The notes under the pieces: model-generated
Database searches by the model: none
The model's input: the letters and a program-made list of their open reading frames with translations, nothing else
What the model was told of the DNA's origin: nothing
Program-made: the position numbers and the translations under genes
Shown here: positions 347 to 5,341 of the stretch, piece by piece
How the letters are laid out: each line of letters opens with the position of its first letter
Numbering within the stretch: position 1 is the stretch's first letter
NCBI GenBank assembly: GCA_038826135.1
Contig: JAWBON010000072.1
Span: 1-6,064, forward strand
Direction of reading: 5' to 3'
From: Candidatus Odinarchaeota archaeon
Lineage (GTDB): Archaea; Asgardarchaeota; Odinarchaeia; Odinarchaeales; Odinarchaeaceae
DNA length: 6,064 nt

Positions 347-643
347 ATGAGTTTAAATAATGAGGATGTTAAAAATTTTATTAAAGCAGCCTGGAGTTCT
401 CCTTCTATAATAGTTAAAACACCCGACTACTTATACATACTAAAAAAAGAAGGGGATAAATGGACTGAATTATCATATACATTCGGGGATAAGCGTGCGG
501 AGAGGAGAAGCTTAAACGCAGATGACGCTCTACTATACTTAATAGAGGAATTAACTAAAAGTTTAGTTCAATATTCAAATAGTCTGAAGGAGCATATTAT
601 AGTGGATAACAGTAAACTTAATGAGATTCTAGAAAGCGTTTGA
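347..643 (+). CDS. Hypothetical protein (98 aa), predicted short beta-meander followed by helices
   Basis: ATG start with a good SD-like motif, and it fills the gap between endA and the next gene. No family recognised. Confidence 0.75.
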   Translation: MSLNNEDVKNFIKAAWSSPSIIVKTPDYLYILKKEGDKWTELSYTFGDKRAERRSLNADDALLYLIEELTKSLVQYSNSLKEHIIVDNSKLNEILESV

Positions 644-676: not shown

Positions 677-1369
677 ATGGTTGAACATTGCCCTAAATGC
701 GGTTTAACAGCTAAACCCGGCGACAAGTACTGTAGGTATTGCGGTTCGGAGATGGCTTCTAAAGAGGAGTTAGATGATCTGTTAACAGAGGAGCTTAGAA
801 GAAAACTTGTTCTAAAAGGTAAGCTATCTAATCTGAGAGATGAGAAAAACAAATATTTGGATGAGCTTAAGATTTTAGAAGATGATTTAAATAACGGTAG
901 AGGGTCTTTAATCGATGTGGAGAAGAGACTCCGTTATTTAAAACAGCAAATTTCAAATATTAAAGATGAGGAGAGGAGAATAAATCTTAAAGATGTTAAA
1001 ATGCCGTATGAAGAGATAATTGAGGAGAAAAATAGAGTGAGTGAACAGATTGAAAAATTAGATAAGCTTCTTGAAAGCGGTAAGATAGATGAGAGAAACT
1101 ACCATGAGTTAAGAGATGAATTTTCCAGTAAAATTAATACAATAAATAAGAATTTTGAAGAGATAAAATTAAAGATGAAGAGAATCTATGTTGGTTTAAA
1201 AGAGGCTGTAAAAAGGCATGAAAAGGAACTTGAAATATTAACAGCTAGATATGAAATAGGACAGTTAGATAAAGATAGTTACAGTAAAAAAGAGAGGGAG
1301 CTGAGAAATAAAATAAGTGATTATAAACTCTGTTTAGAGGCTTTAAAAAAAGAGCCTCTGATAATCTAA
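677..1369 (+). CDS. Zinc-ribbon + CdvA-like coiled-coil (helical hairpin repeat) protein, 230 aa
   Basis: N-terminal CPKCG-x9-CRYCG ribbon (C5, C8, C19, C22), followed by a K/E/L-rich coiled coil with three hairpin turns (G74, G135, G195). GGTTGA lies upstream of the ATG. The CDS is certain; the CdvA-like assignment rests on remembered motif similarity. Confidence 0.8.
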   Translation: MVEHCPKCGLTAKPGDKYCRYCGSEMASKEELDDLLTEELRRKLVLKGKLSNLRDEKNKYLDELKILEDDLNNGRGSLIDVEKRLRYLKQQISNIKDEERRINLKDVKMPYEEIIEEKNRVSEQIEKLDKLLESGKIDERNYHELRDEFSSKINTINKNFEEIKLKMKRIYVGLKEAVKRHEKELEILTARYEIGQLDKDSYSKKERELRNKISDYKLCLEALKKEPLII

Positions 1370-1397: not shown

Positions 1398-1775
1398 ATG
1401 AGTTTTAAAAAACCTATTTCAAACAACCAAAAAGTTGAGGAGACCCAGAGACCTATTTATAAAAAGTGTTCGCCTGAATGCAATCTATTCAGATGCTCAC
1501 AGAGAGCTTTAACAATACGATACGACAGAGGTAAAAAAATAGTCTGGTGTAATTTTGTACCAGGAGGGGATTATTGTCAGGGAGCTAACTGCAACTATTC
1601 TATCTGCTCTCAGCATAAATTAAGAGCGGAGAACATGTGTGGGCTTTACACTCAGAGAAATAAGCGTTTAGATGATGAGCGGGAAATCTCAGAGGAGGAT
1701 AAGATTTTGAGCAAACAAGTTCAGTTGAAAAGTAAGGTTTTGAAGAGAATCAAGAATCTTTCAGAACTAGAGTGA
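1398..1775 (+). CDS. Cys-rich putative metal-binding protein (~125 aa) with a charged C-terminal tail
   Basis: Eight Cys: CSPEC, RC, WC, CQGANC, ICSQH, MC. ATG1398, preceded by GGTGTG, is preferred over GTG1389. The core resembles small conserved TACK hypothetical proteins as I remember them. Confidence 0.75.
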   Translation: MSFKKPISNNQKVEETQRPIYKKCSPECNLFRCSQRALTIRYDRGKKIVWCNFVPGGDYCQGANCNYSICSQHKLRAENMCGLYTQRNKRLDDEREISEEDKILSKQVQLKSKVLKRIKNLSELE

Positions 1776-1991
1776 TTAGAATACGCTTCTTCGCCATTTC
1801 TCGGCCTGCCTTTCCTTTTTAAGAGATTTTTTAATTAATTTATAGTGCTCCTCGCACACGTACACTTTATTCAGTCTATCGGCTTCAACATCTAACTTAG
1901 CTTTTTTCGCGTCAGATAAGCTTAAACTGCGAACAGCCTGTTTCGAACAGCCTTTAACACTGCAATTTACGCCCTTGTTTACTTTACCCAT
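1776..1991 (-). CDS. Small basic C2CH-type zinc-binding protein (~71 aa), conserved-archaeal-hypothetical-like
   Basis: C-x4-C (CSVKGC), a 30-residue spacer, then C-x2-H (CEEH) and a K/R-rich C-terminal helix. AGGTG SD lies upstream of ATG1991; the track uses TTG1994. Confidence 0.8.
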   Translation of the reverse strand: MGKVNKGVNCSVKGCSKQAVRSLSLSDAKKAKLDVEADRLNKVYVCEEHYKLIKKSLKKERQAEKWRRSVF

Positions 1992-1999
1992 CAAAACAC

Positions 2000-2662
2000 C
2001 TACCTTCCGATTATATTATGTATTTTTTCTAATAAGTCAGTCTTCCAATTCAAAAAATTCAAAGCATACTTCTGAGCGTCTTCACTTATTAAACTCTGCT
2101 CATCAGAATATTTTCTAAGCGATTCTAACAAGGAACCCATTGAAATAAGAAGAGGATCAAATTTCTCAGCGCTGAATATTTTATATAATATCTCTCGGGC
2201 ATTCGCCACAGGCAAATATATTTCTCTAATCGCAGTTTTATGTAATAAATTATACAGAGCTATATCTAATAGTTTAACCACGTCAATATATTTAATAATT
2301 ATAGACTTGTTCTCAGCTTTTAATTTCTCTGAGAGTACTCTAATCCCCTCCATTTTCTCACTGTAAAATCGTTCTAGTAACGGTTCATCATCACAGTATA
2401 GTTCAAAAACAACTTTATCATTTTGTTGACCGACCGTAATTTTAACTATAACCCGCTGGTTTTCAACCATCTTAGATAATGCAGCTACCTCCATTAACGG
2501 CGTAGCGGTTTTTTTAAAAAATATTAGCTTAGATTTCACGGAGTTGAATATGTAATATAATATATTAAATGAGAGGAAAATATCATCTAAGAGGGGGGCG
2601 ACGCTCCCCTGTTTAACATGCATCCCACGTGTAAAACCAGCTAATTCGTCTTCAATACTCAT
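2000..2662 (-). CDS. Hypothetical soluble protein (220 aa)
   Basis: Long ORF starting 9 nt after the ClC stop and ending a few nt before the Zn-finger gene. No confident family. Confidence 0.8.
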   Translation of the reverse strand: MSIEDELAGFTRGMHVKQGSVAPLLDDIFLSFNILYYIFNSVKSKLIFFKKTATPLMEVAALSKMVENQRVIVKITVGQQNDKVVFELYCDDEPLLERFYSEKMEGIRVLSEKLKAENKSIIIKYIDVVKLLDIALYNLLHKTAIREIYLPVANAREILYKIFSAEKFDPLLISMGSLLESLRKYSDEQSLISEDAQKYALNFLNWKTDLLEKIHNIIGR

Positions 2663-5240: not shown

Positions 5241-5341
5241 TGGTGGGCGGGGAGGGTCTTGAACCCTCGACCTGCGGAGCCTATTAACTTCAGCTTCTCC
5301 GCGTTGTAAGCGCGGCATCATAACCCCTAGACCACCCGCCC
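5241..5341 (-). tRNA. tRNA-Val(UAC), CCA encoded, with a 25-nt intron in the variable region (5296-5272)
   Basis: Minus-strand sequence GGGCGGG TG GTCT AGGGGTTA TGAT G CCGCG CT-TAC-AA CGCGG AG [AAGCTGAAGTTAATAGGCTCCGCAG] GTC GAGGG TTCAAGA CCCTC CCCGCCC A CCA. The acceptor stem (7 bp), anticodon stem (5 bp) and T stem (5 bp) are perfect, and the discriminator is A73. Removing 25 nt gives a standard 76-nt tRNA. Confidence 0.95.
5272..5296 (-). other. Non-canonical tRNA intron (position 45/46) with a relaxed BHB splicing motif
   Basis: The central helix is G40-C41-G42-G43 paired with intron CCGC. The bulges are AG|A and AG|G, and the intron helix is AGCT/GGCT closing a 10-nt loop. Confidence 0.85.

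Follow-up and report, generated by a model that had tools for sequence, protein, structure and literature searches.

A zinc-ribbon protein of Odinarchaeia with a CdvA-type coiled-coil domain, from an Asgard-wide family with a conserved partner gene

The window analysed here is an entire contig of 6,064 bp (JAWBON010000072.1, forward strand) from a Candidatus Odinarchaeota archaeon (assembly GCA_038826135.1), whose genome spans 1.26 Mb and is 93% complete. We focused on a gene at positions 677 to 1369 that encodes a 230-residue protein, hereafter P0001, made of a CxxC-x10-CxxC zinc ribbon at the N-terminus followed by three helical hairpins of ~60 residues each. The nearest named relative is Candidatus Odinarchaeum yellowstonii LCB_4, where the orthologue (OdinLCB4_001365) is 68% identical to P0001 and the gene order of the whole window is the same; orthologues in other Odinarchaeia are 57-73% identical. 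[quoted passage not shown] The gene and its parts are as follows.

677..1369 (stop codon included), + strand: gene for the zinc-ribbon/three-hairpin protein P0001, 230 residues; the sole long open reading frame at this position
689..742, + strand: zinc ribbon CPKC-x10-CRYC (C5, C8, C19, C22; the ribbon spans residues 1-26), from Pfam matches, invariant cysteines and short beta elements in the model
788..979, + strand: hairpin 1, residues 38-101, turn at G74; a unit absent from CdvA, from model helices 38-72/78-101 and hhalign
1001..1363, + strand: CdvA-type three-helix coiled-coil domain (hairpins 2 and 3), residues 109-229, turns at G135 and G195, from profile and structure matches to CdvA

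An initial annotation made from the DNA alone had proposed a zinc ribbon in the place where CdvA carries a PRC barrel, and this is what we found. P0001 has no Pfam match to a PRC barrel; residues 1-26 are the four-cysteine ribbon and residues 38-101 a helical hairpin. The Pfam family Zn_Ribbon_1 reached 24.8 bits against a cut-off of 25, with further matches to Zn_ribbon_3 and DZR, and C5, C8, C19 and C22 did not vary among Odinarchaeial orthologues (alignment A1). An AlphaFold2 model run on the family alignment (predicted local distance difference test score (pLDDT) 86.5, predicted template modelling score 0.69) was all-helical except for the ribbon. Hairpin 1 (helices 38-72/78-101) stood free in this model, and hairpins 2 and 3 (helices 110-133/139-193/199-224) were joined through one long central helix.

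The repeat described in the initial annotation proved exact in this reading frame: three alignable segments (residues 62-92, 123-153 and 183-213) with turn glycines G74, G135 and G195 (nt 896, 1079 and 1259) at intervals of 61 and 60 residues. An ungapped self-comparison of the single P0001 sequence gave its strongest diagonals at offsets 60, 121 and 61, with a top score of 54 compared to 37.4 +/- 6.1 in composition shuffles, 5 of 500 of which reached it. We then split a 25-member family alignment into its three units and compared the sub-profiles by hhalign. Hairpins 1 and 3 matched at 93.6% (E 2e-7) and hairpins 2 and 3 at 91.9% (E 7e-7), while hairpins 1 and 2 matched at 65.8% (E 6e-5), only weakly above six reversed-sequence controls (4-45%, E 2e-4 to 1e-2). 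Because the forward scores beat the reversed controls and the turn glycine fell in the same column of every hairpin-hairpin alignment, the three-hairpin repeat, judged by sequence comparison, exceeds a generic coiled-coil background. Residues of the turn motif were strongly conserved in the family (L128 in 24/25 members, Y142 in 23/25, G195 in 22/25).

CdvA, the first-acting scaffold of ESCRT-based division in Crenarchaeota, is represented by arCOG04054 and Pfam PF18822, with structures from S. islandicus available as 9s9g, 9s9h and 9s9i (Drobnic et al. PNAS 2026, PMC12818579). When the 25-member family profile was searched against 177,635 PDB sequences, the top match was S. islandicus CdvA (9s9g/9s9h; E 1.1e-5 for 9s9g_A), aligned without gaps over 103 residues that include both turn motifs; the runners-up were designed coiled coils and GCN4, at 4e-4 or worse. 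PF18822 gave sub-threshold matches in 11 of the 25 family members, the best at 27.1 bits (cut-off 30; E 4.4e-6). These matches kept one fixed register, and almost all that were inspected had profile positions 2-4 at the start of hairpin 2, with the match extending to ~86-109. The closest relative of P0001 to carry such a match is the Odinarchaeial protein P0006 (47% identity). The helical part of the family (alignment A3) also matched P0123, an independent PF18822-bearing protein with a Glu/Pro/Ala-rich tail that resembles the Bathyarchaeota CdvA-like type in Makarova et al. (hhalign 94.5%, E 8e-8, 112 columns). An ESM Atlas feature search returned Asgard zinc-ribbon clusters and one Bathyarchaeota cluster with PF18822 in 16% of its members; in an ESM Atlas fold search, all rows had template modelling scores below 0.5.

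Structural comparison of the model likewise gave CdvA as the best match. CdvA ranked first in VIA-align (9s9g_L, Z 12.3; 9s9i_A, Z 11.4), a score that is not decisive alone since helical models can reach Z ~12-13 from common arrangements. On 9s9i_A, residues 109-229 of the model superposed on residues 72-193 of the chain with a root-mean-square deviation (rmsd) of 1.8 Å over 113 residues, and Foldseek aligned the model to CdvA at 2.5 Å over 115 columns. The sequence and structure alignments agreed in register, each P0001 residue corresponding to the CdvA residue plus 37. In line with the initial annotation, the two turn motifs (L..L....G/E-I..e.Y) have the same interval of 60 residues in both proteins (I100/I160 in CdvA, I137/L197 in P0001). 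Because these independent sequence and structure searches agree, we conclude that the CdvA coiled-coil domain has a genuine relative in the C-terminal ~120 residues of P0001.

Besides the caveat on the Z scores, several results weigh against reading P0001 as a CdvA-related scaffold. P0001 searched alone against Pfam matched neither CdvA nor SHOCT at E <= 1, the PF18822 model run over the whole genome returned nothing on the P0001 gene, and every PF18822 match in the family lay under the gathering cut-off of 30 bits; P0001 is tied to CdvA in sequence by way of the family profile alone. The Foldseek E-value for CdvA was only 0.09. P0001 lacks the PRC barrel, the source of the lateral contacts of CdvA. 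In addition, the six hydrophobic head-to-tail filament contacts of CdvA (A90, L94, I100, I149, M153 and I156; PMC12818579) map onto K127, L131, I137, E186, A190 and E193 of P0001. The family keeps a hydrophobic residue at L131, I137 and A190 and carries a conserved charge at three of the six positions, namely K/R at 127 and E at 186 and 193. It follows that any contact from head to tail would be in part electrostatic, as opposed to purely hydrophobic in CdvA, and from the aligned sequences a CdvA-like longitudinal contact would be possible in this family only in such an altered form.

The proteins also differ in overall design. By sequence profile and predicted structure, P0001 (residues 109-229) and CdvA (residues ~72-193) have a common coiled-coil domain, and both appear to be soluble, with differing globular heads at the N-terminus. 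CdvA has a PRC barrel in this place, whereas P0001 has the zinc ribbon and an extra homologous hairpin. The initial annotation had taken the third hairpin to be the added, degenerate one; instead the extra unit is the first (residues 38-101), hairpins 2 and 3 correspond to the CdvA pair, and the third is intact. CdvA ends in a flexible C-terminal linker and a CdvB-binding E3B peptide, whereas P0001 has neither, its chain ending six residues past helix 199-224. Finally, CdvA belongs to TACK archaea and adjoins ESCRT-III and Vps4 genes, whereas the P0001 family is Asgard and the P0001 gene has no such neighbours. P0001 is thus not a CdvA orthologue, and the evidence does not bear out the earlier idea of a repurposed CdvA; it fits a separate Asgard-wide zinc-ribbon family with an ancient CdvA/steadiness-box hairpin module.

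A TACK family, arCOG03733, comes closest in architecture, with an N-terminal zinc ribbon, a coiled coil and a CdvA-like domain (PMC10936438) outside cdv loci; the likeness to P0001 is by published description, not sequence. The published list holds 32 members from Thermoproteales, Bathyarchaeota, Korarchaeum, Archaeoglobales and unclassified Crenarchaeota, and no Asgard (Makarova et al.). Members of arCOG03733 are paired with a ribbon-less paralogue, arCOG03734, whereas the neighbours of P0001 are an unrelated alpha/beta protein of ~100 residues and a protein with eight conserved cysteines.

After CdvA, the VIA-align ranking held the steadiness boxes of Vps23 (2f6m_C, 2caz_A and 2f66_A, Z 9.5-9.8), each aligned to one hairpin. 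Residues 108-165 and 164-226 of P0001 each superposed on the yeast Vps23 SB with rmsd 1.3-2.1 Å over 58-65 residues, a fit to be read with the fact that short helical hairpins are common. The box of the ESCRT-I headpiece (yeast Vps23/Vps28/Vps37) is a single helical hairpin of the size and shape of those in P0001, whereas P0001 has three in tandem and lacks a UEV domain, a Vps28-type domain and an ESCRT neighbourhood. A search of the whole genome with Vps23_core (Pfam PF09454) came back empty at E <= 10. The Asgard group Znr_CC_PH_SB (asCOG cog.011556) also combines zinc ribbons, a coiled coil and an SB-like hairpin, but it carries a PH domain between the ribbons and the SB, for which the 230 residues of P0001 leave no room.

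A 435-residue Asgard paralogue in genome G011 (L014:702-2006, - strand) carries N-terminal, internal and C-terminal zinc ribbons, and its coiled coil matched hairpins 2-3 alone in the family profile. We considered whether this paralogue is Znr_CC_PH_SB; no PH domain was detected in it, and the assignment was not established.

The turn motif itself (L..L...G.I.e.eY...e..L) is common to P0001, GvpG and SHOCT, though the GvpG and SHOCT matches span one hairpin of ~30-40 residues. GvpG (PF05120) reached 22.8 bits on residues 116-149 only of P0001 (cut-off 30.6) and was found in 15 of the 25 family members, of which P0006 passed the cut-off over a single hairpin (31.2 vs 30.6 bits). Neither the window nor the examined loci showed gas-vesicle genes. 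The SHOCT-like turns of the initial annotation were recovered as sub-threshold matches in 5 of the 25 relatives (PF09851, cut-off 27 bits; best E 0.0022, e.g. 16.3 bits) and not in P0001 itself. Matches to NCBIfam ASRP, SMC and Rad50 models were rejected as coiled-coil noise (<= 29.7 bits vs cut-offs of 300-1000). Separately, the family profile matched PDB entry 8whn, the cytoplasmic domain of OST1/ribophorin I from Ca. Prometheoarchaeum, at E 4.2e-4, and hairpin 3 superposed on it with Z 9.3 and rmsd 1.7 Å over 68 residues. An Asgard oligosaccharyltransferase subunit may thus carry this hairpin module on its cytoplasmic side.

An exhaustive phmmer search of 1.84 billion representative sequences retrieved 99 proteins, of which ~35 were full-length relatives of 220-300 residues. 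The named ones came from Odinarchaeia, Promethearchaeota, Freyarchaeota, Helarchaeota, Hodarchaeota and the 'Asgard group', and their annotations read only hypothetical or zinc-ribbon protein or, spuriously, SbcC or SMC ATPase. With a profile restricted to the helical part (A3), 178 of the 201 Asgard genomes sampled gave a match at E <= 1e-5, among them 79 of the 86 high-quality ones.

The head domain of these proteins is exchangeable. On the Odinarchaeial contig L013, the slot orthologous to the P0001 gene holds a 524-residue fusion (718-2292) in which a HerA/DUF87 P-loop ATPase stands N-terminally in place of the zinc ribbon and the hairpin domain is 47% identical; the gene order there is EndA, a gene for a 99-residue protein, the HerA fusion and the eight-cysteine gene. 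Elsewhere, more divergent HerA fusions occupy a second locus in that genus and are found in a further genome of Odinarchaeia (L007:6001-7485 and L015:1351-2799). The hairpin domain is thus headed by a zinc ribbon in P0001, by a HerA/FtsK-type P-loop ATPase at the orthologous Odinarchaeial locus and by a PRC barrel in CdvA.

Two neighbouring genes of the window accompany the P0001 gene in other Asgard genomes.

347..643, + strand: partner gene upstream of the P0001 gene, encoding an Asgard-specific protein of 98 residues (alignment A4, motif ALLYLIEELTK)
1398..1775 (start ATG 1398 per alignment), + strand: gene downstream of the P0001 gene, encoding a 125-residue protein with 8 conserved Cys (alignment A5)

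The upstream protein belongs to a family of ~100 residues with 36-69% identity across Odin-, Promethe-, Freyarchaeota and others (alignment A4). Its 86 homologues are all labelled 'hypothetical', and the named ones are Asgard save one record labelled Bathyarchaeota; matches were present in 142 of the 201 Asgard genomes. To assess linkage, we compared the match coordinates of this gene and the hairpin-protein gene across the 201 genomes. At least 65 genomes, spread over eight genome families, had the two on one contig and no more than ~4 kb apart, mostly as direct neighbours on the same strand; they were divergent in one genome family, and in another a single ~1-kb gene, encoding a Band_7 protein in locus L011, stood between them. 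No partner was detected in several genome families that have the hairpin protein, and one family (f17) had the partner but no hairpin protein. The hairpin-protein gene and the Asgard-specific gene therefore form a conserved pair. The wider order BacA/VTT, PhoU_div, EndA, ~100-residue gene and hairpin-protein gene recurs in Odinarchaeia, in a Promethearchaeota metagenome-assembled genome (MAG) and in another Asgard MAG.

The 98-residue partner was predicted to adopt an alpha-beta4-alpha fold (model pLDDT 78); in fold searches nothing matched it clearly (best Z 6.0, Foldseek E >= 0.06). Reading the pair as a 'split CdvA' or a 'split Znr_PH_CC_SB' was unsupported, as the partner shows no sign of a PH domain or PRC barrel. 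A predicted complex of P0001 with this neighbour scored 0.00, which gives no verdict for or against binding. The downstream protein, which has a basic helix at its C-terminus and eight invariant cysteines, is kept in Odinarchaeia and at a Promethearchaeota locus and matched no Pfam or NCBIfam family. The pair is thus a trio with the eight-cysteine gene in Odinarchaeia and Promethearchaeota.

As stated in the initial annotation, the P0001 gene lies outside a cdv locus. No ESCRT gene was found in the window, nor within 10 kb of the orthologue in the closed Odinarchaeial genome, where the Snf7 genes are ~790 kb from the hairpin-protein gene, and none stood beside the hairpin-protein gene in seven distinct loci inspected (Odin-, Frey-, Promethearchaeota and others).

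We made several further observations on the neighbourhood. Band_7/SPFH genes adjoin the hairpin-protein gene at a Freyarchaeial locus (L008:4491-5408) and at another Asgard locus (L011:4007-4891), and LCB_4 has, 7 kb from it, a Band_7 protein with a fused zinc ribbon (L005:17947-18903). Positions 1776-1994 (- strand) of the window encode a lysine-rich protein of 72 residues with a C..C...C..H-like pattern and a weak THAP match (E 0.075), and a gene for 70-71 residues occupies the syntenic position in three further Odinarchaeial loci (L005, L006 and L013). Positions 2000-2662 (- strand) encode a 220-residue protein that matched NCBIfam NF045535 ('Sel_Asgard, putative selenocysteine system protein') at 117.9 bits (cut-off 132); its synteny is conserved in Odinarchaeial genomes. 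For a proposed tRNA-Val with a non-canonical intron at 5241-5341, ARAGORN found no tRNA in the window, in a scan that an intron-bearing archaeal tRNA could escape.

If P0001 is a scaffold or adaptor, its hairpin domain would, by analogy with CdvA and the ESCRT-I headpiece, serve as an oligomerisation surface. It could assemble into homo-oligomers or filaments, or combine with paralogues, the HerA fusion for example, into hetero-oligomers, and the zinc ribbon, perhaps together with the ~100-residue and eight-cysteine neighbours, would supply the link to a target. A bolder version, which we regard as doubtful, is that Asgard archaea, contrary to what has been stated, have a counterpart of CdvA: a protein nearly universal among them and not linked to ESCRT genes, whose coiled coil of CdvA type would polymerise or template assemblies, acting with the ~100-residue partner and, in certain lineages, with a HerA/FtsK-type motor in fused form.

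Alternatively, P0001 could be an ESCRT-I-type adaptor, with its SB-like hairpin or hairpins docking into the Asgard ESCRT-I/II headpiece (Vps23, Vps28 and the SB-bearing Vps22) and its zinc ribbon recognising cargo or ubiquitin. Such a role was proposed by Makarova et al. 2024 for other Asgard SB-containing proteins; in published work the hairpin of CdvA and the SB are treated as equivalent, and binding to ESCRT-I is predicted for Asgard SB proteins (PMC11188069; preprint 10.1101/2023.07.25.550441). The superposition of hairpins 2 and 3, each on the yeast Vps23 box, is consistent with it, as is the near-universal presence of both the hairpin family and Snf7 in Asgard genomes; the sole genome family without Snf7 (0/5) also mostly lacks the hairpin protein (1/5, marginal). 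However, five genomes, all incomplete, have the hairpin family with no Snf7 match, and we rejected Snf7 co-occurrence as a discriminator since both families are near-universal. The inspected loci with no adjoining ESCRT genes, the distance to Snf7 in the closed genome and the lack of a Vps23_core match also argue against this role, and the best match was to the whole two-hairpin domain of CdvA, not to a single SB. We consider the adaptor of this type unlikely.

A second alternative is a device for DNA handling or chromosome segregation, in which the hairpin domain would tether a HerA/FtsK-type translocase, fused or separate depending on the lineage, and the zinc ribbon would bind nucleic acid. 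The HerA fusion in the orthologous slot of one Odinarchaeial genome and the paralogous fusions in the same genus and in another genome point in this direction, as do a separate HerA-like gene 2.4 kb downstream in locus L011 and the reported stabilisation of Metallosphaera CdvA filaments by DNA (cited in PMC12818579). However, the fusions were seen in Odinarchaeia only, the HerA neighbour in L011 ends in a coiled-coil tail that does not resemble CdvA (hhalign 0.3%), a nucleic-acid-binding domain was not identified, and zinc ribbons of the P0001 type are functionally promiscuous. This role, too, seems improbable.

The last alternative, a generic zinc-ribbon coiled coil whose likeness to CdvA, SB, GvpG and SHOCT reflects convergent helix-turn-helix hairpins of biased composition and not common descent, would account for the weak matches to many coiled-coil families (NCBIfam SMC and ASRP, OEP, DUF1664 and others), for a turn motif widespread enough to draw in GvpG and SHOCT and for Z scores of 8-9 to many unrelated helical proteins, but it is very improbable given that CdvA tops both the sequence-profile and the structure searches in the same register over 103-123 residues with both turns, that the forward repeat signal exceeds the reversed controls, that P0123 offers a second PF18822 match and that the turn-motif residues are so strongly conserved.

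A 2022 domain survey reported CdvA_alpha/beta domains and CdvA homologues to be absent from Asgard archaea (PMC8970359). Makarova et al. identified the CdvA hairpin with the ESCRT-I steadiness box and listed many Asgard SB proteins, including Znr_CC_PH_SB. An asCOG named 'CdvA' (cog.004117) exists and may be the P0001 family. Since both this type of domain and the ribbon-plus-CdvA-like architecture have been published before, for TACK archaea, our claim is a modest one, to which the present data add the conserved partner gene, the HerA head-swap and a first match to a CdvA structure determined by experiment. About nine in ten sampled Asgard genomes encode a protein with a full two-hairpin domain of the CdvA type, and this hairpin module is thought to have common ancestry with the eukaryotic ESCRT-I steadiness box. 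The P0001 family is thus a target for questions about membrane, division and DNA organisation in Asgard archaea and about how CdvA and the steadiness box diversified before eukaryogenesis.

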